This document shows positions 21,792 to 46,225 of a stretch of 64,000 bases of DNA, in pieces. The stretch lies in the NCBI GenBank assembly GCA_963805415.1, contig CAWDUD010000005.1:434455-498454 (forward strand), written 5' to 3'. Each line of letters opens with the position of its first letter. Position 1 is the first letter of the stretch. Made by a program: the position numbers and the translations under genes. Source of the stretch: an uncultured Acidimicrobiia bacterium. GTDB lineage: Bacteria > Actinomycetota > Acidimicrobiia > IMCC26256 > JAENVU01. The notes beneath the pieces are model-generated. The model saw only the letters and a program-made list of their open reading frames with translations. It had not been told where the DNA came from and ran no database searches.

Positions 21792-21830
21792 CGCCGGAAT
21801 GTAGCGGTGCCGGCCCTAGGGTGAGCGCCG

Positions 21831-22857: not shown

Positions 22858-22920
22858 CTCGAACCCCCGCGACGACACCCGGGCGCCCGGCAGGGTCATC
22901 CGAGCCCTCCCCGGACCGAC

Positions 22921-22965: not shown

Positions 22966-22978
22966 CGGGCTGGATCCG

Positions 22979-23851: not shown

Positions 23852-23893
23852 GACTTCGACCTCCGGTGTCGGGTGAACCACTAGGTTCGCACA

Positions 23894-24781
23894 ATGGCTG
23901 ACGTCGCCGTGCAGATCGACGGCCACACCCTCCAACTGTCCAATCTGGACAAGGTTCTCTACCCCGCGACGGGCTTCACCAAAGCCGGGATCATCGACTA
24001 CTACTCGAAGATCGCGCCGGTGATGCTCCCCCACCTCCGGGACCGGCCGCTCACCCTGGTGCGCTACCCGAACGGCGTCGAGGCCGGTTCCTTCTTCGAG
24101 AAGCGCCGGCCGCCGTCGGCGCCGGACTGGGTCCGCTCCGGCGGCGAGCTCGGGTCGGTGCTCTGCGACGAGGCCGCAACCCTCGTCTGGCTCGCGAACC
24201 TCGCCGCGCTCGAGCTGCACACCCACCAGCACACCGAGGCCGCACCGGATCTGCCCATCGCGGTCGTGCTCGACCTCGACCCCGGGGACCCGGCAACCGT
24301 GCTCGACTGCGCCACCGTCGCGCTCGACCTCCGATCGATCCTCGACCGGCTCGGGCTCGTCGCCGTCGTGAAGACGTCCGGCTCGAAGGGCCTGCACCTC
24401 TCGATCCCGATCGCGACCGGGACCGTCGACGACGAGGGCACGAAGCGGTTCGCGCTCGCGCTCGGTCAGATCCTCTCCGACGCCGCGCCGGACCGCGTCA
24501 CGACCGTGATGGCGAAGGAGCGGCGGCCGGGCCGCGTCTTCGTGGACTGGAGCCAGAACGACCGGCACAAGACCACGGTCGCCGCGTACTCCCTGCGGGC
24601 GCGGTCCCGGCCGACCGTCTCGACGCCGATCACCTGGGACGAGCTCGCCGACGCACGCGACGGCGGGGACCCCGAGGCGCTGTCGTTCGAGACCGAGGCC
24701 GTGCTCGCCCGCATCGAGCAGCTCGGCGACCTGTACGCGGGCGAGCTCGACGGCGACCAGGTGCTCCCCGCGCTCGGGTAG
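23894..24781 (+). CDS. ligD: Stand-alone LigD polymerase/primase domain (NHEJ PolDom)
   Basis: Intact 295-aa ORF: LSNLDKVLYPATGFTKAGIIDYYSKIAPVMLPHLRDRPLTLVRYPNGV...VVLDLDPG...VKTSGSKGLHLSIPI...VFVDWSQNDRHKTTVAAYSLR. It has no ATP-dependent ligase or phosphoesterase domain. It is divergent from ku with about 42 bp between the starts. Confidence 0.85.
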   Translation: MADVAVQIDGHTLQLSNLDKVLYPATGFTKAGIIDYYSKIAPVMLPHLRDRPLTLVRYPNGVEAGSFFEKRRPPSAPDWVRSGGELGSVLCDEAATLVWLANLAALELHTHQHTEAAPDLPIAVVLDLDPGDPATVLDCATVALDLRSILDRLGLVAVVKTSGSKGLHLSIPIATGTVDDEGTKRFALALGQILSDAAPDRVTTVMAKERRPGRVFVDWSQNDRHKTTVAAYSLRARSRPTVSTPITWDELADARDGGDPEALSFETEAVLARIEQLGDLYAGELDGDQVLPALG

Positions 24782-24805
24782 TCGCGCACGCGGTAAGGTC
24801 CGGCC

Positions 24806-25624
24806 GTGGATCTCGCCGGAGCCGTCGCCGTCGTCACCGGCGCGAGCCGGGGGGTCGGTGCCGCGACCGCGATCGCGCTCGCGGAGGCGGGCGCGACCGT
24901 CGTCTGCGCGGCGCGGGCCACGGACGCGGCACCGCTCCCGATCCCGGGCACGATCGACGCGACGGTCCGGGCGATCACGGCGGCCGGTGGGACCGCCGTC
25001 GCGCGGCCGACCAACCTCGCGGTCGACGCCGAGGTCGAGGGTCTCGTCGACGAGACCCTCGAGCGGTTCTCGCGGGTCGACATCCTCGTCAACAACGCGG
25101 CCGTCACGTTCCCGGGCGACCTGGCGCTCCCGATGAAGCGCTTCGACCTGATCTTCGCCGTCGACCTGCGGGCCCCGGTGATCGCCACGGCGCGCGCGGC
25201 CCCGCACATGGTCGAGCAGGGACGCGGCGCGATCGTGAACGTCTCCTCGGCGGCCGCGCTCAACTACTACCCGGGCCAGATGGCGTACGGCATGGCCAAG
25301 GCCGCGCTCGAGCACTTCACCCTCTCGGCGGCCGAGCAGCTCCGGCCGCACGGCATCCCGGTCAACACGTTCCGGATCGACGTCCCCGTCGCGTCGGAGG
25401 GCTTCCTCGCCGCGCTCGCCGACGTCGACCACTCCGACTGGGAGCCGCCGGCCGTGGCGGCCGAGGGCATCCTCTGGATGCTGGCGCAACCGCCGTCCTA
25501 CACCGGGTACAACACCGGCATGGCCGCGCTGCGGGCGGAGCACGGGATCATGGCGAGCCGGACGGCCCGGCCCCACGAGCAGGCGCCGACGATGGTCACC
25601 GACTCACCGCTGAACAGGCCATAA
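24806..25624 (+). CDS. SDR-family oxidoreductase
   Basis: Intact 272-aa ORF (GTG start). It has the TGASRGVG dinucleotide-binding motif, the NNAA motif, and the catalytic YGMAKAAL (YxxxK). Confidence 0.8.
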   Translation: MDLAGAVAVVTGASRGVGAATAIALAEAGATVVCAARATDAAPLPIPGTIDATVRAITAAGGTAVARPTNLAVDAEVEGLVDETLERFSRVDILVNNAAVTFPGDLALPMKRFDLIFAVDLRAPVIATARAAPHMVEQGRGAIVNVSSAAALNYYPGQMAYGMAKAALEHFTLSAAEQLRPHGIPVNTFRIDVPVASEGFLAALADVDHSDWEPPAVAAEGILWMLAQPPSYTGYNTGMAALRAEHGIMASRTARPHEQAPTMVTDSPLNRP

Positions 25625-25679
25625 ACAACCGCACACCCGCGGTGGCGGACCCGGGACGCGCGGTTACGGTGCCGCGACC

Positions 25680-26356
<677 letters not shown>

Positions 26357-26360
<4 letters not shown>

Positions 26361-27652
26361 CCTGGGCCGACGCCGCCACCGCGGCGTTCCGCTCCCTCGC
26401 CCGGCGCTTCGGGCGGGCGACGCTCACGGTGCTCGCCGTCGCGCTCGCGGCCGCGCTCCTCAGCGCGCTGCTGATCATCTCGAGCGCCGCCCGGACCCGG
26501 GTGCTCACCCAGCTCTCGAAGGGCGGCCCCCTCGCGGGCATCCAGGTCGCGCCCGCGGCACCGGCCCCCGATGCGCTCGACACCGACAACCCGAGACCCG
26601 GCCGCGCCCGGCCGATCGAGGCGGGAACGATCCGCCGCATCCGACGGCTGCCCGGCGTCCGCTCGGTCGTGGCCCTCGAGACCACGCCCGTCATCGTCTC
26701 ACCACCCGACCCGGAGGAGGATCCGTTCCGGAACACGCTCGCGGGCGCCGACCTGAGCCGACTCACGAGCCTGCCGATCACCGTCGTGGCCGGCCGCACG
26801 CCGGTCCCGGGCTCCCGGACCGAGGTGGCCGTCACCGAGGGCTACCTCCACCGGGTGGGGCTCCAGCGGACCGATGCGGCGAAGGTCGTGGGGACCGAGC
26901 TCGAGATCGGCGCGCCGCGCGTGTTCGCTCGCGGCGCGCGCCGGCTCGACGTACGCGGCCGTTGGACCCGTGCCGAGATCGTCGGCGTCGTCGCGCAGCA
27001 GGTGTTCGACTCGCAGGTCATCGGCTCCAGGCAGATGCTGCGCGACGCCCGCGCCTGGTCCGACCTCTCGACGGACGCCGAACGGTTCGGCCTCGCCGCG
27101 CCCCGCTACGCCGGGCTGTTCGTGGTGGCCGACGGGCTCTCCCACGTCGGGGCCGTGCGCGCCCGCATCGACGGGCTCGGCTACTCGACGAGCGCGCCCG
27201 AGAACCTGGTCGAGACGGTGCAGCGCTACCTGCACGTGGTGGAGATCGTGCTCGCCGGGATCGGCGTGATCGCACTCGCCATCGCCGCGCTCGGCATCAC
27301 CAACGCCCTGCTGGCGGCGATCCGCGAGCGCCGGCGCGAGATCGGCGTCCTCAAGGCCATCGGTGCACGGGATCGCGACGTCCGGCGGCTCTTCCTCATC
27401 GAGGCCGGTGCCACCGGCGTGGTCGGCGGCCTGCTCGGAACGCTCACCGGCTACGGCATCGCGCTGGTCCTCGGGGCGGTCGTCAACCGCTACCTGGTGG
27501 CCCAGCAGCTGCCCGGCGTGGCGATCGGGTTCCCCTGGACCGTGCTCGTGCTCGGCGTGGTCGGCGCCGCCGGCCTGGCGACCCTCGCCGGCCTCGTTCC
27601 CGCGCAACGGGCGGCCCGCCTGCCCGCCCGCGACGCGATGGGGGACGCATGA
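26357..27652 (+). CDS. FtsX/MacB-type ABC permease with large extracytoplasmic domain
   Basis: Intact 431-aa ORF. It has an N-terminal TM helix, about 250 aa of extracytoplasmic region, then the FtsX domain (ALLAAIRERRREIGVLKAIGARDRDVRRLFLIEAG... with three further TM helices). Confidence 0.8.
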
Positions 27653-28421
27653 GGCGGCCCGCTCACCGCCGGACCGTCCTCGTCGCGGCCACCGCGCTCC
27701 TCACGCTGGTCGGCGCGTCCTGCACGAGCAGCGCGTCGTCGACGCCCGCGGCCACCGCCACGGGCCCGAGTCCCGTGTACGTCGCGCTCGGCAACGGGGA
27801 GACGGCCGGGAACGGCGTGAAGGACCGTATCCGCGACGCCTGGCCCCAGATCGTCTACCGGACCGAGCTCCCGGCGTCGGCGATCTTCGTCAACTTCGGC
27901 GAGACCGACGCCACCGTCGCCGATGCGCTCGCCGACCAGCTCGGCCCCGCGCTCGCGCTGCACCCGACCGTGGCCACGGTCCATCTGACCGATGACCGGT
28001 TCCAGGGGACCAGCGTCGCCGACTACGAGTCCCGCCTCACCGAGCTCGTCCGCCGGCTCCGGCGCGGGGGCCGGACCGAGGTGGTGCTCGGCACCGTGCT
28101 CCCCGAGGACCGCGAGCCGGGGGTGCTCGCCTGCACCGCCGACCCACCGCCCGACGGGCCCCGCTGTCGGATCGGGCCGGTCGACGACCCGGCCCGCAGC
28201 GGACCGCGGGTCGACGCCATGAACGCGGCGATCCGCGCGTGGCGGACGCGACCGGCGCCACCGTGGCGGACGTCCACGGCGCCTTCCTCCGGGCGCGTGC
28301 GGCCGGTCGGGAGGATGCCCTCTGGGCCGGCAACGACTTCTCCCCCAACCAGGCGGGCCACCAGCTCCTCGCCCGTGAGTTCGGCGCCGCCGTGCGGGAT
28401 GCGCTGAAATCGCACCGATGA
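27649..28421 (+). pseudogene. SGNH/GDSL-fold lipoprotein with degenerate catalytic motifs (one frameshift near 28235)
   Basis: ATG 27649 overlaps the permease stop (ATGA). It has a signal peptide with a lipobox-like LVGASC. Where block I GDSxx is expected the sequence reads ALGNGETAG. Where block V DxxHPxxxGH is expected the last 60 aa (ORF 28239..28421) read NDFSPNQAGH. Confidence 0.6.
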
Positions 28422-29104
28422 CGCCGCGGGACTCCCAGCGCAGCCGGGTCTACCGCGCCGAGACGCCGATGGGCGGGCGCCGCCTGCCCACGCTCCCGGA
28501 CTGCGCGGCGTTCGTCGACGAGGTCGTCGGCTCGCTCTGGTGGATCGCCCGGTTCCCCGAGCGGGACCTCGACCGCGTCCCCAAGCTCCGGCCGGGCAAC
28601 GGCGCCCGCCAGGCGTTCTACCGCGAGGACCCGGGCCGGCCCACGATCACGCTGCCCCGCCGGTACCGCACCACCGCCGTCGTGCTGCACGAGCTCGTGC
28701 ACTGGGCGCTCGCCGACGCGGTGGACCTGCCCAACCACGGCCGGACCTTCACGCGCGTCTTCCTCGACGCGACCGGCGAGTTCCTCGGCCCGGCCAAGCG
28801 GGAGCGGCTCGCCCGCTCCTACACCGAGCACAAGGTGCGCCTCGGCGGCCCGGCGCGCATCGGGCCGGACGGCACCTACGACTACGCCGTCGACGAGCGC
28901 CTGCGGCTCGGGCGGGGCCGGCACCTCGCGGTCCGGTGGGGCAAGAACTCCGAGGGCGACGGCGTGCTGCGCTCACGCGCCCACCGCAAGGTCACGCTCC
29001 AGCGGGACGACGCCACGACGGTGATCCCCGAGCGCGAGATCTGGTGGGTGCGACCGTACGACCCGGCTCAGTTGAGCCGCTCGACGATCATCGCCATGCC
29101 CTGA
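28418..29104 (+). CDS. HExxH putative metallohydrolase (resembles the actinobacterial TIGR04338/Rv0185-type family, from memory)
   Basis: Intact 228-aa ORF. SQRSRVYRAE near the N-terminus and VVLHELVHW (HExxH) match that family as I recall it. The ATG overlaps the previous stop (ATGA at 28418-28421). The 3' end overlaps the convergent thiolase by 37 nt. Confidence 0.6.
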   Translation: MTPRDSQRSRVYRAETPMGGRRLPTLPDCAAFVDEVVGSLWWIARFPERDLDRVPKLRPGNGARQAFYREDPGRPTITLPRRYRTTAVVLHELVHWALADAVDLPNHGRTFTRVFLDATGEFLGPAKRERLARSYTEHKVRLGGPARIGPDGTYDYAVDERLRLGRGRHLAVRWGKNSEGDGVLRSRAHRKVTLQRDDATTVIPEREIWWVRPYDPAQLSRSTIIAMP

Positions 29105-30282
29105 CCGCCGCCGACGCACATCGTCTCGAGGCCGACGGTCTTGCCGGCGTCCTCGAGGCCGTTGAGGAGGGTGCCCATGATGCGGGCACCGGTCATGCCG
29201 AACGGGTGGCCGAGCGCGATCGCCCCGCCGTTCACGTTCAGCTTGTCCCAGTCGATGCCCAGCGCCTTGGCGGACGGGATGACCTGGGCCGCGAACGCCT
29301 CGTTGATCTCCACCAGGTCGACGTCGTCGATCGTCATCCCGGCGCGGGCGAGGGCCTGCCGGCTCGCCTCGATCGGACCGAGGCCCATGATCTCGGGGTC
29401 GAGGCCGGTCACGCCCGAGGACACGATGCGCGCCAACGGCGTGACACCGAGCTCCCGGGCCTTGGTGTCGCTCATCACGATCACCGCGGCCGCGCCGTCG
29501 TTCAGCGGGCACGCGTTCCCGGCGGTGACGCGACCGGTCGGGCGGAACGCGGGCGCGAGGCTCGCGAGCTTCTCCCGCTCGGTGGTCGGACGCGGGCAGT
29601 CGTCGGCGCTGATCACCGCCCCCGCGCCCGTCGGGTACGGCGTGATCTCCCGCTCGAAGAAGCCCCGCTCGATCGCGGCGCCGGCACGCTGCTGGGAGAG
29701 GAACGCGTAGTCGTCCATCTCCTCGCGGGTGACGTTCTCGATCTCGGCGACGTTCTCCGCGGTCTCGCCCATCGCGATGTAGACGTCGGGCAGGCCCTCG
29801 GCCGGGGTCCACGGGCCCTGGTCGCCGGCGGTGCGGGCGGCGCTGCGCGCGGCGGCCGGGTCGAACTTGTGGTTCTGGGTGTTCGGCGTGTGGTCGGAGC
29901 TGCCTCCCACCATGAACCGGCTGACCGCTTCGACGCCGGCGGCGACGAAGACATCACCCTCGCCGGCACGCACGGCGTGCGCGGCCATGCGGATCGTCTG
30001 GAGCGAGGACGAGCAGTAGCGCGTGATGGTGCAGCCGGGGACCTTCGGCATCCCGGCGAGGACCGCGACGACCCGACCCATGTTGAAGCCCTGCTCCCCA
30101 CCCGGGAGGCCGCAGCCGAGCATGAGGTCGTCCACCAGCGCCCGGTCCAGCTCGGGCACCTTGCTCAGGACCGTGTCGACGATGAAGGCGGCCATGTCGT
30201 CCCCGCGCTCGTCGACGAACGAGCCCTTGAAGGCCCGGCCGATCGGGGTGCGGGCGGTGGCGACGATGACTGCTTCGGGCAT
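29068..30282 (-). CDS. Acetyl-CoA C-acyltransferase (thiolase)
   Basis: Intact 404-aa ORF. It shows the active-site region ITRYCSSSLQ, NEAFAAQ, GGAIALGHPFGMTGARI and CVGGGQGMA, the classical thiolase signatures. Confidence 0.9.
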   Translation of the reverse strand: MPEAVIVATARTPIGRAFKGSFVDERGDDMAAFIVDTVLSKVPELDRALVDDLMLGCGLPGGEQGFNMGRVVAVLAGMPKVPGCTITRYCSSSLQTIRMAAHAVRAGEGDVFVAAGVEAVSRFMVGGSSDHTPNTQNHKFDPAAARSAARTAGDQGPWTPAEGLPDVYIAMGETAENVAEIENVTREEMDDYAFLSQQRAGAAIERGFFEREITPYPTGAGAVISADDCPRPTTEREKLASLAPAFRPTGRVTAGNACPLNDGAAAVIVMSDTKARELGVTPLARIVSSGVTGLDPEIMGLGPIEASRQALARAGMTIDDVDLVEINEAFAAQVIPSAKALGIDWDKLNVNGGAIALGHPFGMTGARIMGTLLNGLEDAGKTVGLETMCVGGGQGMAMIVERLN

Positions 30283-30343
30283 GACGGGACTCCTCGGGGA
30301 GAACGGGTTGGGGCGACCTTACGCGGCGATCGGGGCCGGTTGC

Positions 30344-30868
30344 CTATCCGTCGAGGCGGCGCAGATCCCGGCGGTAGCGCTCGCCGTTCTCGACGTACTG
30401 GCGGGCACCCATCCGGATCATCAGCTCCGGTTCGACCGCGTCGGGCCGCAGCGTGGCCGGGACGCCGAGCGCCATGGCCCGGCTCGGCACCTCCATGTCG
30501 TTCGGGACCAGCGCGGCCGCGCCGACGAGCGCCTCGTCGTGGACGACCGCCCGGTGGAGGACGATCGAGCCGGATCCCACGAGCGCGCCGTTCCCGATCG
30601 TGCAGCACTCGATGTGGACGAGGTGTCCGATCACGCAGTCGTCCCCGATGACGGTCGGGAGCAGCCGCGTCGCGTGGATCACGCTGCCGTCCTGGATGCT
30701 CGTCCGGGCGCCGACCGTGATGCTGCCGTAGTCGCCGCGGAGCACCGCCTGGGGCCAGACGGTCGAGTCCGGGCCGATCGAGACGTCGCCGATGACGGTG
30801 GCGTCGGGATGCACGAACGCGGTGGGATCGATCCGGGGCACGAGGTCGCCGAGGGCGTAGATGGCCAT
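30344..30868 (-). CDS. Gamma-carbonic-anhydrase-family (YrdA/PaaY-like) LbH protein
   Basis: Intact 174-aa ORF: IDPTAFVHPDATVIGDVSIGPDSTVWPQAVLRGD...IQDGSVIH. Hexapeptide repeats and the His ligand pattern are typical of the family. Confidence 0.8.
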   Translation of the reverse strand: MAIYALGDLVPRIDPTAFVHPDATVIGDVSIGPDSTVWPQAVLRGDYGSITVGARTSIQDGSVIHATRLLPTVIGDDCVIGHLVHIECCTIGNGALVGSGSIVLHRAVVHDEALVGAAALVPNDMEVPSRAMALGVPATLRPDAVEPELMIRMGARQYVENGERYRRDLRRLDG

Positions 30869-30927
30869 GCGAGGAGCGTAGGGGACCCCTCGCGGTCGGT
30901 CGGAGGGCGCGGGGCTACGTTGGGGCG

Positions 30928-31737
30928 ATGCTCGATCCCGCCACCGTCGAGGAGCACGTCGACGCCGTCGCGCGCGACGGCTACACGATCGTGCCGGACG
31001 CGATCTCGCCCGACCTGCTCGACGCCCTCACCGCCGACCTGGAGACGCTCGAGCGCGTCTACGACGTCCAGCCCTCGCCGAACGCGTTCGAGGGGACGGA
31101 CACGGTGCGCGTGTACAACCTCCTCGGGCTCTCGCCGATCTGGGCCGAGGTGCCCGTGCACGACCACGTGCTCCCCGTCGTCGAGGGCGTGCTGGACGCC
31201 GGGTGCCTCGTCTCGTCGCTGTCGTCGATCCGCATCCGCCCGGGTGAGTCGGCCCAGCCGATCCACGCCGACGACCAGCTCATGCCGCTCGCCAAGCCCC
31301 ACGTCCCCACCGTGTGCAACTCGATGTGGGCGCTCACCGACTTCACCGAGGAGAACGGCGCAACCCGCATCGTCCCCGGATCGCACCTCGCGGATGCGTC
31401 ACCGGTCTACGGCGCCCACTACGACTCCGTTCCCGCCGCGATGCCGCGCGGCAGCGTCCTGATCTGGCACGGGAGCCTCTGGCACGGCGGCGGCGCGAAC
31501 CGCACCGACACCGACCGCGTCGGGATCGCGATGAACTACTGCGCGGGGTGGGTGCGCCAGCAGGAGAACCAGCAGCTCGGCATCCCCGTCGAGGTCGCGC
31601 GCACGTTCTCACCGCGCCTGCGCGAGCTCATCGGCTACGGCGTCTACAACATGCTCATCGGGCACATCAACAAGCACAGTCCGGTGGAGATCCTCGGTGA
31701 TGCGCCCGCCGCGTCGCGCATGGTCTGGGACGGCTAG
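30928..31737 (+). CDS. Phytanoyl-CoA dioxygenase (PhyH) family Fe(II)/2-oxoglutarate oxygenase
   Basis: Intact 269-aa ORF: QPIHADDQ (HxD), NSMWALTDFTEENGATRIVPGSH, WHGGGAN. Confidence 0.75.
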   Translation: MLDPATVEEHVDAVARDGYTIVPDAISPDLLDALTADLETLERVYDVQPSPNAFEGTDTVRVYNLLGLSPIWAEVPVHDHVLPVVEGVLDAGCLVSSLSSIRIRPGESAQPIHADDQLMPLAKPHVPTVCNSMWALTDFTEENGATRIVPGSHLADASPVYGAHYDSVPAAMPRGSVLIWHGSLWHGGGANRTDTDRVGIAMNYCAGWVRQQENQQLGIPVEVARTFSPRLRELIGYGVYNMLIGHINKHSPVEILGDAPAASRMVWDG

Positions 31738-32653
31738 GTGCACGACGGGTCCCGGCGCGCCATCGTCGCCGCGCTGCTCGCGAACCTCGGCATCGCGGTC
31801 GCGAAGGTCGTCGCCGCGATCATGACCGGCTCGGCGTCGATGCTCGCCGAGTCGATCCACTCCTTCGCCGACACCGGCAACCAAGGCCTGCTCTTCCTCG
31901 GCGGCAAGCGGGCGCGCCGGGCCCCCGATACCGCGCACCCCTTCGGGTACGGCGCCGAGCGGTTCTTCTGGGCGTTCGTGGTCGCACTCGTCCTGTTCAC
32001 CCTCGGTGCGATGTTCTCCCTGTTCGAGGGGTTCGAGAAGCTGCGCACGCCCCACGACATCGAGAGCCCGGGGATCGCCTTCGCGGTGCTCGGCGTCGCC
32101 GTGGTGCTGGAGGGCCTGTCGCTGCGGACCGCGGTCCGCGAGGCCGCGCCCGAGCGCGACGGTGCGGGATGGCGGGAGTTCGTCCGGCGGACCAAGAACC
32201 CCGAGCTCCCGGTCGTGCTCCTGGAGGACTCCGGGGCGATCCTCGGCCTGGCGCTCGCGATCGCCGGGCTCGGGCTCGCCGTCGTGACCGACCAACCGCG
32301 GTTCGACGCGATCGGCTCGATCGCCATCGGCATCCTCCTCGGCGCGATCGCGATCGTGCTCGCGATCGAGATGAAGAGCCTGCTCATCGGCGAGGGCGCG
32401 TCGGTTCCGGACCAGCACCTGATCGAGCGGACGCTGGCCGACCACCCGGCGGTGCGGTCGCTGATCCATCTCCGCACGCTCCAGCTCGGTCCGGAGGAGG
32501 TGCTCGTCGCGGCGAAGCTCGACTTCCACGAGTCGACCGCGAGCGAGCTCGCGCCGGCGATCGACGCGGTCGAGGCCGACGTCCGCGCCGCGGTGCCCGA
32601 CGCGCGCTCTGATCTATCTCGAACCCGATCTGGACCGGTCCCGCACCCGGTAG
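31738..32653 (+). pseudogene. Cation diffusion facilitator (CDF) transporter, 1-nt insertion near the 3' end
   Basis: GTG 31738 starts ...MLAESIHSFADTGNQGLL (the CDF metal-site motif), followed by six TM segments and a C-terminal cytoplasmic domain. Removing the single t at about 32608 restores DAR-LIYLEPDLDRSRTR-stop (TAG 32651-32653). As given, the frame runs on to 33237. Confidence 0.8.
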
Positions 32654-32661
32654 TCGGGTCG

Positions 32662-33090
32662 TCACCGTGGGCGGAAGTCCACCAGCGCGACGGTCTCCGA
32701 GCGGCGGTCCAGCACGACCTCGACCGGCAGGTCCAGGGCGAGGTCGGCGGGGTCGAGGCCCACGAGGTTGCCCACGAGTCGCGGACCCTCCTCGAGCTCG
32801 ACCACGAGGACCGCGTAGGGCAGGTGCTCGGCGAAAGCCGGGTCCGTCGCCCGGTGGGTCGTCGTCCACGTGAACACGCGGCCGCGACCGCTCACCGGCT
32901 GCCACGTCCACGCGGCCGAGCCGCAGGCCGCGCACAGCACACGCGGCGGGTGCCGCCACGTGTCGCAGTCGGTGCAGCGCTGGAGGTGGACGCGCGCAGT
33001 GGACGCCGCGTGCGCGTAGAACTCCGCCGCGAGGCCGTCCCCGCCGGGCAGCACGCGCTCCGGCCGCCGGTCCGCGTCGCCGACGCTCAC
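32662..33090 (-). CDS. DUF35 OB-fold/zinc-ribbon protein (partner of SCP-x-type thiolase)
   Basis: This is the C-terminal part of ORF 32662..33231, starting at GTG 33090: [21 protein letters not shown] (zinc ribbon), then [12 protein letters not shown]...[17 protein letters not shown] (OB fold). The start overlaps the upstream stop (GTGA). Confidence 0.75.
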
Positions 33091-34262
33091 CGGTCGACGC
33101 CCAGGACGGCGATGCTGCCGTCGCCGAAGTCGCCCCAGCCGGTCACCAGCCCGAGCTCGGCGCCGGGAACCTGCAGCGCGGCGTCGCCGCGGAGCTGGCG
33201 GACGGACTCGACCACGTGGTTCATCCCCCACATGTGACCCTGCGACAGGAGTCCACCGTGGGTGTTGGTGGGCAGCGCACCGTCGATGCGGAGCCGCCCG
33301 TCGCGCACGAACGCGCCCGCCTCCCCCCGCCCGCAGAGACCGAGCGCCTCGAGCTGGAGCAGCACGACGTAGGTGAAGCAGTCGTAGATCTCGCAGAAGT
33401 CCACGTCGGTCGCGTCCACGCCGGCCATCGCGAACGCGCGGGGCGCCGCGTCGGTGAGACCGATGTGGAACAGGTCGGGGCGGTTGGCGATGTCGTCCGC
33501 CGGTGACGGGTGGCCCTCCCCCACACCCAGGATCACCGCCGGTGGACGCGCGAGGTCACGCGCCCGCTCGGTGGTCGTCACGATCACCGCGGCGGCGCAG
33601 TCGGTCTCGACGCAGCAGTCGAAGCGACGGAACGGCTCGCTGACCCAGGCACTGGCGAGGTAGTCGTTCATCGTGAGCTCGCGGCCACGCATCAGGGCCT
33701 TGGGATGGTGGTGCGCGTGCTCACGGAACGCGAGCGCGATCTCGCCGAGATCGGTCTCGAGCGTGCCGTACAGCTGCTGGTGCCGCGTCGCGATCCAGCC
33801 GTAGAACTGCGCGGCCGACCGCGCGCCGTAGGGCAGGTAGAAGTCCACGAGCACGTCGGCGACCGCGTTGGCGTCCATGCCCCGCCGCGGGGTGCGGGCA
33901 CCCGGACGGTGACGGAATGCGGAGTAGCCGTTCCACCCGACGACCACGAGGACGTGCTCGGCGACGCCGGCGGCCACGGCGATCGCCGCGTTCTGCACCG
34001 CCGCGACCGACGACGCGCCACCCATGTGGACCGTCGCCGAGTAGGCGACCGAGGGGATGCCGAGGTTCGCCGCCAGCTCCTCGACGGTCGTGTACCCGGG
34101 CGGCGGGACCACACCGTCGATGTCGGCGACGGCGAGTCCGGCGTCGGCAATCGCCTCCTGGGCCACGCGCAGCATCATCTCGACCGGCAGCTCGTCGGCG
34201 CCGCGGAGGTACTCGGTCTCGGCGATGCCGACGATCGCCGCCCGTCCGCGGAGGCCCGTCAC
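33087..34262 (-). CDS. Thiolase-like lipid-transfer protein (SCP-x/Ltp type)
   Basis: Part of ORF 33087..34463, starting at GTG 34262: [11 protein letters not shown]...[29 protein letters not shown]...[20 protein letters not shown]...[20 protein letters not shown]. The arrangement with DUF35 downstream is the usual pair. Confidence 0.8.
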
Positions 34263-34572
34263 AGCTGCACCAGCTCGAACTCGACGGCGTACTCGACCCC
34301 GACGGCCTCGCCGGCGGACCGGGCATGGCCACGCAGGAACGGGTCCGGGTCGGTCGTCGTCGTCCCCGAGCCCGGCGAGGTACGCCCGGTGCTCCGCGAG
34401 CGACGCCACGCCGCGGTCGATGGTGGCCGAGACGTCCACGAAGTGGGACGGGGTCGGCGGCACGCCGACGGCGGCCCAGCGGACGCCGCTCCAGGGTTCG
34501 AGCCCCTCGTCGAGCAGCTCGGTGAAGACCCACCGGTTCCCGGCATCTCGCGCCGCGTCGAATGGGTTCGGC
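34259..34572 (-). pseudogene. 5'-truncated, frameshifted hypothetical gene cut by the breakpoint
   Basis: Reading: [69 protein letters not shown], then (other frame) [30 protein letters not shown]-stop (34261-34259, a GTGA overlap with the next gene). Upstream it hits an in-frame TAG (34574-34572) with no start codon. I do not recognise the family. Confidence 0.4.
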
Positions 34573-34602
34573 TACGGCGCGAGGCCCAGAAGAAAAAGTA
34601 AC
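34572..34602. other. Compositional and taxonomic breakpoint (probable chimeric join)
   Basis: To the left are GC3-saturated actinobacterial-type genes. To the right come an A-rich 'agaagaaaaagtaac' and then recX with clearly lower GC3. The left gene loses its 5' end here. Confidence 0.7.
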
Positions 34603-35235
34603 ATGGCGTTTCGCACACCCAAGCCGCTCGACATCGAAGGTTTGATGGACTACGCGGCGCGGGCTCTTTCGGTCCGCGGGTACACGGTGTCCGAGCTCAA
34701 AACGCGCCTGAAGAAACGCGCGGCGCGGGCGGAAGATGTCGAAGTGGTGCTCGGTCGCCTCAAGGACGCTGGCGTGGTGAACGATCGCCGCTTCGCTGGC
34801 ACTTTCGCCGAATGGCGCCGGGAAAGCCAGGGGATGGGGAAGACTCGCGTGCTGCGCGATCTGATGGCTCGGCGCGTCGCGCCCGGGGTGGCGAAAGAGG
34901 CGGTGGATGCGGCCTTCGAAGGGGTCGATGAGACGGCCATGATCCAGGCGTTTCTGGAGCGCAAGTATCGAGGTAAGGATCTCGGGGCGTTGCTGCAGGA
35001 CCAGAAGCAGCTAGCATCGGCGTTCCGCAAATTGCGGGGCGCGGGATTCAGTACCGGCAACTCGATTCGCGTGCTGAAACGCTACGCTGCGGAAGCGGAG
35101 CGGCTGGAAGAGATGGAAGACGATAGCGGGGGTAACGCCAGCGCCACGATTGTGCGGATCGATAGCGTAGGCTGGGACTCTAGATCAGGCTGGGGCTTGC
35201 CCGTTTGCGGGACGTATCATTCGCGCTCTGGTTAG
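34603..35235 (+). CDS. recX: Regulatory protein RecX
   Basis: MAFRTPKPLDIEGLMDYAARALSVRGYTVSELKTRLKKRAARAEDVEVVLGRLKDAGVVNDRRFAGTFAEWR... shows the three-repeat RecX pattern. It is the C-terminal part of ORF 34057..35235. The last 30 or so residues may not be conserved. Confidence 0.8.
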   Translation: MAFRTPKPLDIEGLMDYAARALSVRGYTVSELKTRLKKRAARAEDVEVVLGRLKDAGVVNDRRFAGTFAEWRRESQGMGKTRVLRDLMARRVAPGVAKEAVDAAFEGVDETAMIQAFLERKYRGKDLGALLQDQKQLASAFRKLRGAGFSTGNSIRVLKRYAAEAERLEEMEDDSGGNASATIVRIDSVGWDSRSGWGLPVCGTYHSRSG

Positions 35236-35662
35236 GCTGGACTTCCGAAGATTTTCCATTTGTCTCTGTATCGAAGAACCGATTCTTGCGTCACTTCATA
35301 CCATATAGAGTGTCGCCTCCGACGCTCGCGGGTGAACTTGGCTAACCTGACACTGGAGACGACGAAAAACTCTGGGGCTCTGGCTCGGCTTTGCCCCGCT
35401 TCTGCCTGAGGTTGACTAGAACGTAGATGTGGCTTCGCGCGTTGAGGTTGAGGGCGTTCTTTCCGACAAGCCAGAATCCAAACGTTCTTGCATTGGTCTT
35501 GACCTGAACCGAGAATGCCCTTGAACAGGAATGGTTTGTCACCAGTAAATCCGCACCCGCCGCGCTTCGCGACGTGGGGGAGACGATGAACCCCAAGCGC
35601 GAGAGTTCCGCCGCCACCAAATATACGCCCCGCATCCCGGTGATTTGGCCTTTTGATGGCAT
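35232..35662 (-). pseudogene. Small PD-(D/E)xK nuclease-like protein (one frameshift near 35385)
   Basis: ORF 35342..35662 reads GQITGMRGVYLVAAELSRLGFIVSPTSRSAAGADLLVTNHSCSRAFSVQVKTNA...SHIYVLV. This fits the G-x-x-G-x-x-x-V-x-x-E-L-x-x-x-G ... D-L-L-V ... VQVK pattern of small restriction-endonuclease-fold families (DUF4365/PF11645-like). The C-terminus EFFVVSSVRLAKF...RYRDKWKIFG is in the frame of ORF 35232..35675. Confidence 0.4.
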
Positions 35663-35760
35663 AGGTGCCCCTCAACTTGATGCTTTAGCGCCCAGGCCAT
35701 TATAGGCCACAGCGAACACTCAGGCGCGAGGACGGCGAACGCAGCGTCGCGGCCCGCCCT

Positions 35761-35849
35761 GTGGGGCAGGATTGCATCCTGCTCGCGGGTTTGTAACCCT
35801 CGCACGGCGCCGATTGGAAATCGGCGCGCAGGTTGAAAACCTGCCCCAC
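35761..35849. repeat. REP/MITE-like structured element: four consecutive hairpins bounded by 10-nt inverted repeats
   Basis: The termini gtggggcagg (35761-35770) and cctgccccac (35840-35849) are exact reverse complements. Internal hairpins: gcaggat-tgc-atcctgc (35766-35782); gggtt-tgt-aaccc with flanking pairs (35784-35802); gcgccgat-tggaa-atcggcgc (35807-35827); gcaggt-tgaaa-acctgc (35828-35844). Confidence 0.6.
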
Positions 35850-35856
35850 TCACTGC

Positions 35857-35911
35857 TTGACCGCGATCCTCGTAATGTATTATTATTCAGTCGACTGCAT
35901 AATCATTCACT
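35857..35911 (+). promoter_or_regulatory. Putative argF promoter overlapped by two tandem ARG boxes (ArgR operator)
   Basis: TTGACC (35857-35862) is followed 15-18 nt later by TATTAT. Box 1 aatgtattattattcagt (35874-35891) matches 14 of 16 defined positions of TNTGAATWWWWATTCANW. Box 2 actgcataatcattcact (35894-35911) matches 12 of 16. The 2-nt spacer fits the classical pair. argR closes the operon. Confidence 0.6.
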
Positions 35912-35965
35912 GTGGAGACTTCCGTGGCCGCATCGAGCTTCGCCGAACCGGGGTTTACTAAAACG

Positions 35966-36855
35966 ATGGTCCAGCACCTGACCCAGGACTTGGATTTGTC
36001 CCAGGATGCGCTGGTCCGCGTTCTCGACCTGGCCGCCCAGGTCAAGCGTACCCCGCAGCGCTTTTCGCAGGCGCTGGCCGGGCGCTACATCAGCTTGCTG
36101 TTCGAAAAGCCGTCGCTGCGGACACGGGTCACTTTCGAGCTGGCGATCAAACAGCTTGGCGGCGATTCCGTCACCTCCGTCGGCTCCGTCGGCGAGCGCG
36201 AGCCGGTCAAGGACGTCGTCCGGAATCTGGACCGCTGGACGCAGGCAATCGTGGCGCGGGTGTTCTCGCAGGACACGTGAAAGATCTCGCAAAATGGTCG
36301 CATGTGCCGGTGATCAACGCTCTGAGCGACCTGTATCATCCCTGCCAGGCGCTGGCCGACGTGCAGACGATCAAGGAACGCTTCGGCCGATGGGACGGGC
36401 TCAAGCTGGCGTACGTCGGCGACGGTAACAACGTGGCGCATTCACTGATGCTGACGGCAGGGCGGCTGGGAATGCATGTCGCCGTCGCGACGCCCAAGGG
36501 TATGAGCCGAAGCCGCATGGTGACCGAGGCGGCGAGCCGGCTGGGACGGATCAGCCTCACCAACGATCCTCTGGAAGCCGTGGACGGCGCGCACGCGGTC
36601 TACACCGACGTGTGGGCCAGCATGGGCCACGAAGGCGAAAAGGAAGCCCGGCTGCAAACATTTCCTCCCTATCGCGTGGATGAGGCGCTGATGTCCAAGG
36701 CGCGGCCGGATGCCATCTTTATGCACTGCCTGCCCGCTCATCGCGGCGAGGAAACCACCGACGCTGTGATGGAATCGGCGCACTCGGTGGTGTTCGATCA
36801 GGCCGAGAATCGCCTGCACGCCCAAAAGGGACTGTTGCTCGCATTGCTGGGATAA
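35966..36855 (+). pseudogene. argF: Ornithine carbamoyltransferase (1-nt deletion at 36277)
   Basis: SLLFEKPSLRTRVTFE (carbamoyl-phosphate site) lies in ORF 35912..36280. HVPVINALSDLYHPCQALAD and HCLPAHRGEE lie in ORF 36277..36855. FSQDT-TGA / GTG-KDLAKWS join if one G is added (acg gtg). Confidence 0.9.
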
Positions 36856-36893
36856 CGACGCCGGGCTGACCGCAACATTTACAATTTAGACTT

Positions 36894-38129
36894 ATGCAAA
36901 AACCCAAGAAGGTAGCGCTCGCCTACTCCGGCGGACTGGACACATCGATCATCATTCCATGGCTCAAGGAACACTACGACTGCCAGGTCGTCGCCGTGTG
37001 CGGCGATATCGGGCAGGGCGGTGAAGAGCTGTCGGGCCTGGAAGCCAAGGCGCGCAAGACCGGCGCGTCCGAAGTGCTACGTGGCGGACATGCGCGAGGA
37101 GTTCGTCTCCGAATACCTGTGGCGGATGGTGCGCGCGGGCGGCGAGTACGAGCACAAGTATCTGCTGGGCACTTCGATCGCTCGGCCGCTGCTCGCCAAG
37201 AAGCAGGTGGAAGTGGCGCTGGCGACCGGTTGCGATGCGCTGGCGCACGGCTGCACCGGCAAGGGGAACGATCAGGTCCGTTTCGAGCTGACCTACAAGG
37301 CGCTGGCGCCGCATCTGCCGGTGATCGCTCCGTGGCGCGAGTGGGACATCGTCTCGCGCGAGGATGCGATCGCCTACGCGGCCAAGCACAAGATGCCCGA
37401 TCGCGCAGACCACCAAGAAGATCTACAGCCGCGACCGCAATATCTGGCACATCTCGCACGAGGGCGGGGCACTGGAAGATCCCGCCAACGCTGCTCCGGA
37501 CGACGTCTGGATGCTCACCAAGAGTCCCAGGAAAGCTCCCGACAAGCCGACCGACGTGACCATCGGATTCGAAGCAGGGCAACCCGGTTTCCGTGAACGG
37601 CAAGAAGGCGTCCGCCGTGGCGCTGCTCGAACAACTGAACAAGATCGCCGGCGACAACGGCGTGGGGCGGATCGACCTGGTGGAGAATCGCTTCGTCGGG
37701 ATGAAATCGCGCGGGGCGTATGAGACTCCCGGCGGCACGCTGATCATGGCCGCGTTCCGCGAGCTGGAAGCTCTGACGCTGCCGAAAGATCTGGCGCACT
37801 ACAAGCAGAAGCTCGCGCTGGATTACGCGGAGATGGTCTACAACGGCCTGTGGTTCACGCCTCTGCGCGAGTCGCTCGACGCGTTCTTCGACGTCGCCTG
37901 CCAGAACACCACGGGCGAGGTCACGCTGCGGCTGTACAAGGGCAGCTTCCAGCCGGTGAGCCGGAAGTCGCCGTATTCGCTGTATTCGCTCGATATCGCC
38001 AGCTTCACCATGGGCGCCGAGTACGACCAGAAGGACGCACGCGGGTTCATCAACCTGATCGGGCTGCCGATCCAGGTGCGGGCGGCGGTGATGAAGGCTA
38101 ACAAGAAGTCGAAGAAGAAGACGGTATGA
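36894..38129 (+). pseudogene. argG: Argininosuccinate synthase (at least 3 frameshifts)
   Basis: [14 protein letters not shown] (ORF 36894..). [11 protein letters not shown]...[15 protein letters not shown] (ORF 37021..37596). [18 protein letters not shown] (ORF 37364..). VENRFVGMKSRGAYETPGG (ORF 37593..38129). An extra g at 37071 is visible (tcc-g-aag tgc tac gtg). Confidence 0.9.
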
Positions 38130-39519
38130 AGCTCTGGGGCGGCCGGTTTGAGGAAGGTCCCTCGGAAGTCTTCGAGCGGTTTTCCGGTTCGCTCCATTTT
38201 GACCGGAGGCTGATCGATGCGGATATCCGGGGCTCGCAGGCGTTCGCGCGGGCTCTGGAAGGCGTCGGCATTCTGAAGGCCGCGGAGCGGGCGGAACTCG
38301 TCTCGGCGTTCGATGCGATTCGGGATGAGGCTCGCAAGCGCGGAGTTCTTCGCGGGCGCAACCGACGAAGACGTCCACACGCGTGGTCATCCGCAAGCTG
38401 AAAGAGCGTGTGGGCGCGCTGGCCGACAAGATCCACACGGGCCGCAGCCGCAATGAGCAGGTGTCTCTCGATGTGCGGCTGTGGCTGCGCGAGGAGATCG
38501 ATCGGGCCACGGGTTTCCTGGGCGGACTGATGGAGGCGCTGCTCGGAGTGCGCCCAGCGCTATCCCGACGCCGTGATTCCCGGCTATACGCACATGCGGC
38601 GCGCGCAGGCGGTGCTGTGGCCGCATTATCTGCTGGCGTATTTCGAAATGTTCGCGCGGGATTTCGAGCGGCTCCAGCAGGCTCGGGCGCGCGTGAACGT
38701 GATGCCGCTGGGCAGCGGCGCGCTGGCGGGCAGCGGATTTCCGTTCGATCGCGAAGCCATGGCGCGCGATCTGGGATTCGCGGCGGTGACCAACAACAGC
38801 ATGGATGTATCGGCCGACCGCGATTTCGCGCTCGACTTTCTGTACGCGGCATCGACCACGATGCTGCACCTGAGCCGGCTGGCCGAAGACTGGATCCTCT
38901 ATTCGAGCGAGGAGTTCGGGTGGCTGGAACTGGGCGACGGCGTCACCAGCGGGTCGAGCCTGATGCCGCAGAAGAAGAATCCCGATTCGCTGGAGCTGAT
39001 CCGCGGCAAGTGCGGCCGCGTGCTGGGGTTCGCTCAGCGCGCTGTTCGTCACGATGAAGGGTCTGCCGACGACCTACAACCGCGACATGCAGGAGGACAA
39101 GGAACCGCTGTTCGAGGCGGCGGATCAACTGTGCGGGTCGCTCGAGATGGCGCGCGTGGTGGTGGATTCGGCCAAGCTCAACGCGCAGCATCCGGCGGCC
39201 GCGGCGGAGGCGAGCTGGGTGGTCGCGACGGATCTGGCGGAGGCGCTGGCTCGCAACGGGACGCCGTTTCACCAGGCGCATCAGATTGTCGGGCGGTTGG
39301 TGCTGGAGAGCGTTCGCGGCGGGAAGAAGCCCGCGGATTGGAACGCCGACGAACTGGTCGAAGTTCGCGCCGGAGTTTACTCCCGAGATGGCGAAGCTGC
39401 TGCAGCCCGCCGAGGGCATGAAGACGCGCGAGATTCGCGGCGGGACCGGTCCGAAGGCGGTGGCGGCTGCTTTGAAGGAAGCCGAGGCGCGCGTCTCGAA
39501 AGCTGCGCTCAAGCAATGA
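38126..39519 (+). pseudogene. argH: Argininosuccinate lyase (at least 5 frameshifts)
   Basis: MKLWGGRFE (ATG 38126, an ATGA overlap with argG). HTGRSRNEQV (ORF 38383..). [13 protein letters not shown] and [20 protein letters not shown] (ORF 38573..39421). [17 protein letters not shown] (ORF 39054..). The C-terminus is in ORF 39286..39519. Confidence 0.9.
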
Positions 39520-39953
39520 ACAAGAGCTACCGCCAGGGCCAGATTCTGAAGCTGGTCCGCTCGCGATCCTTGCGCACCCAGGACGAACTGGCGCGGGCGT
39601 TGCGAGCGGTCGGCATCCGAGCCACGCAGGTTACGCTGTCGCGCGATATTCGCGAGCTCGGGCTGGTGAAGACCGCCGAGGGCTACGCGCGACCCACGGA
39701 ATCCGCGGCGCCCGCCGGTCCCGACCTCGCTACGGTGCTGCGCGAGTTTCTGCTGGACGTGCGCGTCGCGCAGAATCTGCTGGTTCTGATCACGCCGCCG
39801 GCGCATGCGAACTCGGTGGCGGAAGCGCTGGATCAAGCGGCGTGGCCGGAAATCGTGGGGACCATCGCGGGGGACAATACCGTTGTGGCGATCGCGCCGA
39901 CGTCGAAGAAAGCCGTCGCGCTGCGCGAAAAGCTGATGCGGTTTTTGGGCTGA
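39516..39953 (+). CDS. argR: Arginine repressor
   Basis: The ATG overlaps the argH stop (ATGA). RQGQILKLVRSRSLRTQDELARALRAVGIRATQVTLSRDIRELGLVK is the winged-helix ArgR N-domain. GTIAGDNTVVAI is the C-terminal oligomerisation/arginine-binding motif. Intact. Confidence 0.85.
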   Translation: MNKSYRQGQILKLVRSRSLRTQDELARALRAVGIRATQVTLSRDIRELGLVKTAEGYARPTESAAPAGPDLATVLREFLLDVRVAQNLLVLITPPAHANSVAEALDQAAWPEIVGTIAGDNTVVAIAPTSKKAVALREKLMRFLG

Positions 39954-44290: not shown

Positions 44291-45812
44291 AGTCTAAGCC
44301 GCCGAAGAACGCGTCCCGAACCGCAGGCGGCAATTCAGCGAGCGCAGGCATGCTGTCGACCGCTGGAGTCAGCCGCTCGATCTCGACACTTCCGAACCCC
44401 GCTTCGATTCGAGATAGAAGCGCAACAGCGGCGCCGGAACCGGGCGCGTGTGCGTCGGGTCGAGATAGAAGTGGGTCGCGAAGATCGCCAGGCACTCCGG
44501 GTTGGGCGTCTCGATCGCGACCAGCGCTCCTAACCGTAGCTTCTGCGAAAGCAGCTTCACCAATCGCGGCACGGCCGCTGGAGGAAGATGCTCCACCACT
44601 TGGGCGCAGTACGCGCCTCCCAGAGAACCGTCGGCCAGGGATTCGAGATACTCGAACATGTCGCCCTGCTCGACGTCCAGGCCCTTGGAACGGCACAGCG
44701 CGACGGATTCCGTGATTCTGGTCGATTCCTCGTGCCGCGAGTCCGGCAGCCTTGGCGGCTTCGAGGAATTCGCCGCGCCCGCAGCCGATGTCCAGGATCT
44801 CGCCGAGGCGACCGGCAAAACGTGCGACGTAGCATTTCTGCTGCTCGCGAATCCGGTCTTCCGATCCGCGAAACTGTTCGGCGAAGCCCACCCAGTCGAT
44901 GTCCGGATGTTCCTGTGGCGCTGGCGTTGCCGTCGGTGCGGGAACCGCCGCGCCGGTCGCCGCGAGCTTCTGGCGCAGCAGCCGCAACTCGGTATGGATC
45001 AGGCGGTCATATTCGCCGCGGATCTTTTCCATGTCCTGCCACAGCCGCTTCTGGATGTCGAGCGTCCGCCGGTCCAATTCGTTGGTGAAATCGTCGTGCT
45101 GCTGGCGAACCGACTCGCGGAAGTTCTGCTCGATCACGCTGGCTCGCAGGTGGAACGCCGATTGAAGCTCGGACACGGTGCGCAGAAGATGGATCTCGCT
45201 CGCGGCGCGGCGCTCTTCGATGCCCGCGCGCCATTCGTCGGAATGCTTCTTGAGATCCTCGGCATTCGTCCGCAGTTCATGATGATAGGCGGTCAGGGCC
45301 GCCAGACCTCGCGTCAGCTCTTCGGAACTGGTCTGCAGCTCTGATGATGCGCGCCCAGAACGGCCAGACTCGAGTCAGTTCCTCGGAAGTCGTTTGCAGG
45401 TCTCGCCCTCGCCTGCAGATCCTCGGAACTTGTCTGCAGGTCTCTGCGCAGATCCTGATGATAGGCAGCCAGAGCCGCCTGACCCCGGGTCACATCGGCC
45501 AGCGCCTCCAGCGTCGCCTGAACGCAGGCCATGGTGGCGCGATTGAACTCGACCTGTTCCCGCACGTGCCAATCCAGCGCGCGGGAGACGAGCCGCTTGA
45601 AGCGCTGGATGATCGCCGTTCTTGAACCCGGGAGGACGCGGGTTTACGGTGCCGATCGCGGCGACCTTGGCCTCGGCGGCATCGCGAGCGTGCACCAGCG
45701 GCATCAGGTCGGCGGCCGTGACGCCATCGATGCCCAGTGAGCCTTGCGGAACTCGCGAGCGGGCGCGCTGCTGGACCTCTTGGATCGCCGCAGTTAATTC
45801 TTCGTCAGTCAC
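44265..45812 (-). pseudogene. Class I SAM-dependent methyltransferase with long N-terminal coiled coil (several frameshifts)
   Basis: Motif I is ILDIGCGRGEFLE (ORF 44265..45176). The post-I/II region VEQGDMFEYLESLADGSLGGAYCAQVVEHL is in ORF 44369..44818. The N-terminus TDEELTAAIQEVQQRARS...IGTVNPRPPGFKN starts at GTG 45812. Three imperfect repeat units of roughly 22-27 aa (ELTRG-AAL-AYH--LR--LQTSSE-L) lie at about 45250-45500. Confidence 0.7.
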
Positions 45813-45813
45813 C

Positions 45814-46225
45814 CTAACCGCTCCGCTGGCCACGCTTGCTCCGGGCCCACTGCGCCGTGATGCGCGTGGAAATGCCGCCGCGAGGAGTGAAGTCGCCGAC
45901 CAGCGTCGCGGAAACGGGGTCGCGCCCATTTGACGACATCCGCGAGCATGCGATTCACCACGTTCTCCTGAAAGATTCCCAGGTTCCGGAAAGCCAGCGT
46001 GTACATCTTGAACGATTTCAGCTCCAGACATAACTTGTCAGGTACGTAGCGCAGGGTCAAAGTGCCGTGATCGGGCAAGCCGGTCTTGGGACAGATCGAG
46101 GTGAACTCCGGCATCAGGATTTCGATCTCGTATCCGGTCCGGTACTGATTGGGCCAGGTTTCGATTTCAGGCAGATCCGCTTTCACGCCGGCTGCGGCGT
46201 GTTCGTCGGTGTACTGCCGCTTCAC
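45814..46225 (-). pseudogene. queF: NADPH-dependent 7-cyano-7-deazaguanine reductase (1 frameshift near 45925)
   Basis: EILMPEFTSICPKTGLPDHGTLTLRYVPDKLCLELKSFKMYTLAFRNLGIFQENVVNRML carries the QueF catalytic-Cys motif E-F-T-S-x-C-P. The C-terminus LVGDFTPRGGISTRITAQWA is in the adjacent frame. The GTG start overlaps the upstream stop (GTGA at 46225-46222). Confidence 0.85.

Follow-up and report, generated by a model that had tools for sequence, protein, structure and literature searches.

Contigs combining sequences of several phyla have been documented for metaFlye, metaMDBG, and hifiasm-meta, and such chimeras are recognised by a sudden shift of GC content, coverage, and gene-level taxonomy (bioRxiv 10.1101/2025.04.22.649783). 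In that study, chimeras of long-read assemblies are defined by read clipping and coverage steps, whereas the joint described here is known from sequence alone. The stretch of DNA analysed in the present work, comprising 64,000 nucleotides and referred to as the window, resembles the chimeras of long-read assemblies in that GC content and gene taxonomy shift at one breakpoint, that the sequences joined belong to different phyla, and that the flanks otherwise represent normal chromosome. GUNC (bioRxiv 10.1101/2020.12.16.422776; PMC8201837) detects MAG bins that are contaminated or chimeric, and the window shares with bins of this type the occurrence of genes from two distant lineages within one nominal genome record. 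In case the window consists of concatenated contigs of one bin, it would represent ordinary bin contamination. An abrupt compositional boundary is also known from genomic islands and other horizontally acquired regions. Unlike genomic islands, the window features neither tRNA genes nor an integrase nor direct repeats, both of its sides represent syntenic core chromosome, and genes are cut on both sides of the boundary.

According to homology, the window switches from Acidimicrobiia-type to Bryobacterales-type DNA at position ~34,561, the switch being located within three bases. This joint is very probably of non-biological origin, produced either as a chimeric contig or by the concatenation of two contigs. 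In the initial annotation, a sharp breakpoint at the phylum level had been described for the region 34,540–34,610, and its existence was borne out by GC content, tetranucleotide usage, and homology.

Nucleotide composition of the window

The GC content amounts to approximately 72% on the left and approximately 62% on the right of the joint. Evaluation of 1-kb blocks resulted in values between 0.70 and 0.76 for nearly all blocks to the left of 34 kb, with three blocks showing values of 0.67–0.68, and in values between 0.57 and 0.67 for the blocks to the right of 35 kb. Applying a two-segment model, the maximum-likelihood change point for GC content was placed at position 34,587, with a gain of ~381 log-likelihood units compared to a single segment.

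The same division was found in tetranucleotide frequencies normalised for GC content. For the 4-kb blocks of the left side (below 32 kb), correlations with the remainder of that half ranged between 0.89 and 0.95, compared to 0.43–0.55 for the right half. Likewise, the blocks of the right side (above 36 kb) featured correlations of 0.84–0.90 with the right half and 0.33–0.63 with the left half. Exactly two tetranucleotide domains are present in the window, the block at 32–36 kb being the sole mixed one. The compositional step is thus a real and single one that far exceeds chance expectation. One sharp switch is visible in the sliding profiles of GC and tetranucleotides, which had been proposed as a check of the breakpoint, and GC content and k-mer usage change abruptly where the gene-level taxonomy changes as well.

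Taxonomic affiliation of the two halves

The left block (positions 1–34,561) represents chromosomal DNA of the Acidimicrobiia type (phylum Actinomycetota), as deduced from GC content and tetranucleotides, and from position 21,446 onwards also from homology. It is characterised by ~72% GC and a GC3 value of ~0.9, and encodes Ku, a stand-alone LigD PolDom, thiolases, an SDR, an ABC/FtsX transporter, PhyH, and a cation-efflux protein. Positions 23,086–34,561 share 91.4% nucleotide identity with a 3.83-Mb contig (L001; ENA ERZ25039549), and positions 21,446–34,561 share 77–81% nucleotide identity with three contigs from NCBI assemblies (L025–L027; GCA_0543...), in which the gene order is kept. The collinear order of genes in this region is PBP6, Ku, PolDom, SDR, thiolase, hexapeptide protein, PhyH, cation efflux, DUF35, Ltp, and PIG-L. 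The thiolase cluster of the three NCBI loci (P0024) bears the NCBI name 'MAG ... [Acidimicrobiia bacterium]'. The actinobacterial character previously attributed to the left half was thereby refined to the class Acidimicrobiia of the phylum Actinomycetota on the basis of homology.

Two genes located next to the joint on the minus strand are intact. The gene for a DUF35 protein of the ChsH2 type with an OB-fold, representing the partner of the Ltp thiolase, occupies positions 32,668–33,090; its product was recovered by tblastn in a single frame with identities of 85% and 73% to the proteins of L001 and L025, respectively, and the Pfam domains zf-ChsH2 and OB_ChsH2_C were identified in the DUF35 proteins of the relatives. 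The adjacent gene (33,090–34,262) encodes an Ltp-type thiolase of 391 amino acids (Pfam Thiolase_C_1, 1.5e-46) that is 98% identical at the protein level to its counterpart on the 3.83-Mb contig (P0001).

The first 21 kb (1–21 kb) were assigned to the left block as well, on the basis of composition (GC, GC3, and tetranucleotides) and Pfam content only. According to Pfam, this region encodes ordinary enzymes and transporters. For the permease encoded at positions 12,816–14,672, the metagenome scan yielded a single match, which was 33% identical and located on a 2.4-kb contig.

The right block (positions 34,562–64,000; GC ~62%) was classified by homology as chromosomal DNA of the Bryobacterales/Terriglobia type (phylum Acidobacteriota). 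Genes identified in this block include recX, argF-argG-argH-argR, a large glycosyltransferase gene, an ArgZ-like ornithine cyclodeaminase gene, zwf-opcA-pgl, and TIGR03435/DUF3738 genes. The recX open reading frame (34,603–35,235, plus strand; 210 amino acids) was recognised by the Pfam domains RecX_HTH1/2, and its product is 93% identical to proteins of relatives (P0121/P0122) whose source names are Acidobacteriia or Bryobacteraceae. TIGR03435 was matched at 49,034–49,882, and zwf and pgl were matched as well (NCBIfam). The Acidobacteria-type character and the lower GC content described earlier for this half were confirmed, including the presence of TIGR03435, recX, argF, argG, and argH.

Nucleotide identities of 90–91% were obtained between positions 34,577–39,205 and a JGI contig (L002; JGI 3300006638), and identities of 81–84% were obtained between the right block up to position 44,993 and a Terriglobia MAG (L005; SRVP_10). 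Moreover, positions 34,600–64,000 are collinear, at 79–87% nucleotide identity, with two overlapping pieces (L028 and L029) of a 388-kb contig (ERZ26871208:contig_85290_np1212), which holds the relatives of both recX and zwf. Exceptions to this collinearity are an insertion at 47.5–50.7 kb containing TIGR03435/DUF3738 genes and a few shorter unaligned gaps; in addition, the ruvX-recX block is locally inverted in the 388-kb contig. The GTDB representatives among the right-hand relatives are MAGs of the Bryobacterales/Terriglobia.

Taken by themselves, both sides represent ordinary syntenic housekeeping chromosome of their own lineages (21.4–34.5 kb on the left and 34.6–64 kb on the right). The gene order is conserved on both sides in several relatives of the respective lineage, and accessory content of the island type was not found. 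The best relatives of the left half are Acidimicrobiia MAG contigs and those of the right half are Bryobacterales/Terriglobia MAG contigs, the best matches originating from different contigs and different samples and never from one genome. In the NCBI taxonomy, the two lineages are placed in different phyla and even in different kingdoms (Bacillati vs. Pseudomonadati). Separate taxonomic classification of the halves, suggested in the initial annotation as a further check, consequently assigned them to different phyla.

Structure of the joint

Base-level three-way alignments placed the joint at positions 34,559–34,563. The last base matching the Acidimicrobiia relatives is 34,561 (...GCGTCGA), and the first bases matching the Bryobacterales relatives are 34,561–34,563 ((A)ATGGGTT...). 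Alignments end at 34,561 in all four Acidimicrobiia relatives (L001 and L025–L027), corresponding to locus position 9,703 within a PIG-L-family gene, and they begin at 34,561–34,563 in four relatives from the Bryobacterales/Terriglobia (L002, L004, L005, and L006). The breakpoints deduced from these eight relatives, representing six distinct contigs, agree within 3 nt, and at most 3 nt (GAA, 34,560–34,562) are assignable to both sides. The break itself lies within the interval proposed earlier, 10–25 nt to the left of the position estimated there. Ungapped BLAST initially placed the start of the L002 match at 34,577 because this relative contains an additional 21-nt tandem copy, which is missing from the window and from L005.

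Neither filler sequence nor a shared repeat was detected at the joint in the three-way alignments. A mis-join mediated by k-mers or repeats was considered and rejected, as the sequences that continue beyond the joint in the relatives of either lineage bear no similarity to each other at this point. An adapter search revealed no long-read or Nextera adapters at the joint; two TruSeq matches were obtained, both located away from the joint and originating from an over-permissive 13-mer pattern with four errors allowed. The window is continuous and does not contain N runs. An exact search with a 70-mer spanning the joint returned nothing from the collections of genome and metagenome contigs, and a second copy of the joint was not found. 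Exact look-up of three proteins of the window, namely the recX product, a thiolase of 404 amino acids, and a zwf fragment, likewise yielded no record.

The breakpoint ignores gene structure: an open reading frame is cut on each side, and the native neighbours of both are gone. On the left side, synteny and tblastn comparisons with the relatives identified the 3' fragment of a gene of the PIG-L family (LmbE-like deacetylase family) at positions 34,262–34,561 on the minus strand. The fragment covers the region from residue ~136/147 to the end of the proteins of the relatives, which comprise 237–245 amino acids; the first 135–146 codons are absent. The last left-hand gene had already been reported to lack its 5' end, and tblastn now identifies it as this PIG-L-family gene. 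The PIG-L proteins of L001 and L025 yielded two HSPs only in the window, in frames -3 and -1, and the fragment contains an internal insertion of 1 nt at 34,358. Residues 1–135 had no tblastn match in the 64-kb window. In the relatives L001 and L025–L027, the thiolase gene is preceded by a gene of the PIG-L family, one of the beta-lactamase family, and one for a carboxylesterase; the latter two neighbours (beta-lactamase and COesterase) likewise had no tblastn match in the 64 kb. Pfam did not return a match for the reconstructed PIG-L fragment taken alone. A DUF35 identity of the truncated gene was also considered and rejected, DUF35 being located on the other side of Ltp.

On the right side, the last 12 codons and the stop codon of a conserved gene preceding recX were identified at positions 34,563–34,601 (plus strand) by alignment with L002, L004, L005, and L006. 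In the relatives, this gene encodes 144–155 amino acids, of which the first 130–140 codons are absent from the window and only 12–13 are kept. The gene order ruvX-yceG-hyp-recX (yceG corresponding to mltG) was found in L002, L003, and L029, whereas tblastn returned no match in the 64-kb window for RuvX, YceG, or the remainder of the gene preceding recX. The cut gene opening the right-hand side, with its 12–13 remaining codons, had been overlooked in the earlier description. An in-frame TAG (34,574–34,572) that had been regarded as the point where the left-hand gene loses its 5' end does exist, but it is not an end of that gene; it represents the reverse of a CTA Leu codon belonging to the C-terminus of the right-hand gene. 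The distance from this TAG to recX had to be corrected from 25 to 28 nt, since recX starts at 34,603.

Search for mobile genetic elements

No tRNA or tmRNA genes were predicted in the 64 kb by ARAGORN, and no Rfam families were found over the whole window. Direct or inverted repeats bracketing the joint were not detected, the window containing one edge only. Integrase, transposase, and recombinase domains were absent from the ~58 open reading frames scanned with Pfam or NCBIfam, a set in which short open reading frames were covered in part, and the Pfam lists computed beforehand for the syntenic relatives were likewise free of integrase and mobility domains. No conjugation genes were found in the open reading frames scanned. 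Comparison with a plasmid collection yielded no match for the right side, and on the left side only the thiolase gene matched, at ~74%. The absence of tRNA genes, integrase, transposase, and direct or inverted repeats at the joint, as asserted in the initial annotation, is in agreement with these results, which cover the whole window for tRNA genes and ~58 open reading frames for protein domains.

Origin of the joint

Composition, homology, and the cut genes support the explanation that had been put forward as the simplest one, namely a chimeric assembly or two concatenated contigs. Two unrelated chromosomal stretches, one from an Acidimicrobiia and one from a Bryobacterales-like population, would have been fused at their ends during data processing, both populations presumably originating from the same soil-type metagenome. 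Two routes may lead to such a product: a metagenome assembler may create a chimeric contig, with a chimeric long read as one possible cause, or two contigs may be concatenated without a spacer within a bin or record that is contaminated. Because the breakpoint is without shared sequence, a chimeric read or plain concatenation appears likelier than a graph or overlap error.

Among the alternatives, a real and very recent transfer between the phyla by illegitimate recombination was rated highest, but still as very unlikely; it would encompass at least 29 kb in case the right side is foreign or at least 34.5 kb in case the left side is foreign, with one end of the insert being visible in the window. 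Illegitimate recombination can produce blunt joints without microhomology and with genes cut on both sides, and the continuity of the window, with neither an N run nor an adapter, would be compatible with such an event. However, each half looks native and is collinear with chromosomal contigs of its own lineage at 79–91% nucleotide identity, both halves are rich in housekeeping genes, and amelioration of GC content or tetranucleotide usage is not visible. A second boundary is absent within the 29–34 kb on either side, the missing halves of both disrupted genes are not present in the window, and neither tRNA genes nor, among the ~58 open reading frames scanned, genes for integrases, transposases, or conjugation were detected. 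Furthermore, the frameshift load described below is that of a draft-quality consensus, for which chimeras are a known failure mode. That the joint is real, with a living bacterium harbouring core chromosomal DNA of another phylum that amounts to at least 29 kb, is not ameliorated, and was joined in the midst of two genes by illegitimate recombination, was likewise rated as very improbable. If true, it would represent a snapshot of a very recent and very large transfer between phyla.

Even more improbable is a reading of the joint as the edge of an inserted mobile element, be it a genomic island, an ICE, or a prophage, with its integrase and second end located outside the window. Near the edge, neither a tRNA/tmRNA target nor an att-like direct repeat nor an integrase was found, and the cut runs through two conserved genes instead of lying beside an attachment site. 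Although a sharp compositional step is a classic signature of such elements, neither side carries mobile-element genes, both are syntenic with the core chromosome of MAGs from their own lineages, and plasmid similarity is missing on the right and limited to the thiolase gene on the left.

A natural landmark within one genome, such as a replication origin or terminus, was given next to no weight as an explanation for the sign change of the GC skew at ~31–35 kb: the cumulative GC skew does have its minimum near 31–34 kb, with mostly negative skew to the left and positive skew to the right, but the flip is simply explained by the way in which two unrelated pieces are oriented to each other, the GC shift of 10 points, the tetranucleotide change, and the phylum change of every gene would be left unexplained, and no dnaA-type gene was present among the scanned open reading frames.

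Assuming that the joint is a chimeric or concatenated one, any operon, defence system, synteny, or HGT claim spanning ~34.56 kb would be an artefact, and further analyses should treat the halves as two distinct fragments that originate from different organisms. If the joint lies inside a deposited contig, the record and any MAG holding it should be flagged as chimeric. The value of the result lies in quality control and not in biology; evidence from reads for a real joint would be needed to make the locus remarkable.

Frameshifts and sequence quality

Single-base indels break the conserved genes argF, argG, argH, zwf, and opcA, the pieces of which are mostly ~90–100% identical to close relatives. 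The argF gene is split at position 36,278, argG is distributed over four frame segments, and argH is shifted at least twice. Frameshifts were also found in the large glycosyltransferase gene, in a ParA-like gene, and in other genes, and on the left side the AMP-binding genes at ~2.5–4.7 kb and 9.3–10.8 kb are likewise split. Indels of this kind, hitting essential genes whose sequence is otherwise nearly identical, are not regarded as evolutionary decay. From the frameshift pattern, the source of the window appears to be a noisy long-read consensus that was under-polished or of low coverage. Apart from the indels and frameshifts, only the Flye-style names of contigs found among close relatives point to a long-read origin.

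Compared to the relatives, three frame switches were counted on the left side (21.4–34.5 kb), at least 18 on the right side adjoining the joint (35.9–45.0 kb), and ~9 further to the right (45–64 kb). The frameshift density consequently differs 4- to 10-fold across the joint; the difference between the left and right rates (p ~0.01) represents a modest contrast, as the relatives differ in closeness and sequence context may contribute. An uneven frameshift density is expected from two populations at different read depth or from a thinly supported bridge, and read support may have been particularly low directly to the right of the joint. Owing to the frameshifts, gene calling is unreliable across the window, above all in the region 36–45 kb, and requires frameshift-aware handling. 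Apparent pseudogenes (argF, argG, argH, zwf, and others) and the long recX should not be taken as biology.

With respect to recX, the 210 amino acids of the open reading frame compare to 175–177 amino acids in the relatives, and tblastn together with a comparison of the C-terminal parts revealed similarity over residues 1–177. The 33 additional codons probably represent read-through, for which a 1-nt error in a run of G residues at ~35,129–35,133 would be responsible; one more G in this G5 run would abolish the 33-codon extension.

Frameshifts and Consensus Quality

Conserved genes were found to be interrupted by pervasive single-base frameshifts across the window, their density peaking between 35,900 and 45,000, with further sites located at 45,000–64,000, at 22,230, 28,236, and 34,358, at about 2,500–4,700, and at 9,300–10,800. 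The affected genes comprise argF, argG, argH, zwf, and opcA, as well as genes encoding a glycosyltransferase, ParA-like, PGA_cap, GH88, AMP-binding, PBP6, GDSL, and PIG-L proteins. The pieces of these frameshifted genes were mostly about 90–100% identical to close relatives, and the frameshifts look like consensus error of noisy long reads rather than pseudogenisation. The contig of the closest left-hand relative (L001) also bears errors, its SDR and ABC/FtsX genes being split.

The recX gene reads as 210 amino acids in the window, compared to 175–177 in all relatives, and similarity to the latter stops at residue 177 (window 35,100–35,235). Addition of one G to a run of five G within this gene would yield the expected stop (…DSGG*).

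Region between recX and argF

The interval between recX and argF (35,128–35,800) is of low GC content (54–58%), and no nucleotide similarity to the relatives was found for it. A 147-aa minus-strand ORF of the window located in this interval had no Pfam match. Each relative carries a different gene at this spot, namely a 209-aa hypothetical protein gene in the closest right-hand relative (L002) and LemA in the 388-kb acidobacterial contig (its part L029). Since the ruvX-recX block of the latter is inverted with respect to the arg operon, this spot appears to be prone to rearrangement.

An imperfect inverted repeat with 43-nt arms, composed of several small hairpins, lies 5' of argF (35,761–35,849), followed by the AT-rich palindrome TGTATTATTATTCAGTCGACTGCATAATCATTCA (35,876–35,909); Rfam returned no match for this upstream region. 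The palindrome resembles an ArgR operator; an argR homologue is encoded in the window at 39,516–39,947.

Insertions and Lineage-Specific Indels

Compared to the 388-kb acidobacterial contig, the window contains an insertion of ~3.2 kb (47,500–50,700) featuring a lower GC content (about 58%), TIGR03435/DUF3738 paralogue fragments (48,532–50,147), and unannotated ORFs. In the left block, the segment encoding an ABC-ATPase, a MacB-FtsX permease, and a GDSL-lipase (25,590–28,420) is shared with L001 and missing from the more distant Acidimicrobiia relatives (L025–L027); it is an ordinary lineage-specific indel. A Clp_N gene, located between Ku and PBP6 in these three relatives, is missing from the window.

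In L002 (JGI Ga0075522_10000035, 9,956–9,997), the gene preceding recX carries at its 3' end two tandem, in-frame copies of a 21-nt unit (…GCGCGAAGCCCAGAAGA…), a duplication which is present neither in the window nor in the Terriglobia MAG SRVP_10 (L005). Because of this duplication, the first ungapped BLAST boundary was off by 16 nt.

GC Skew at the Joint

The cumulative GC skew reaches its minimum at about 31,000–35,000, and at the joint the skew itself switches sign, negative values giving way to positive ones. An origin of replication was rejected as the reading of this minimum, the signature being only mimicked; the flip results only from two unrelated pieces being joined in opposite replichore orientation.
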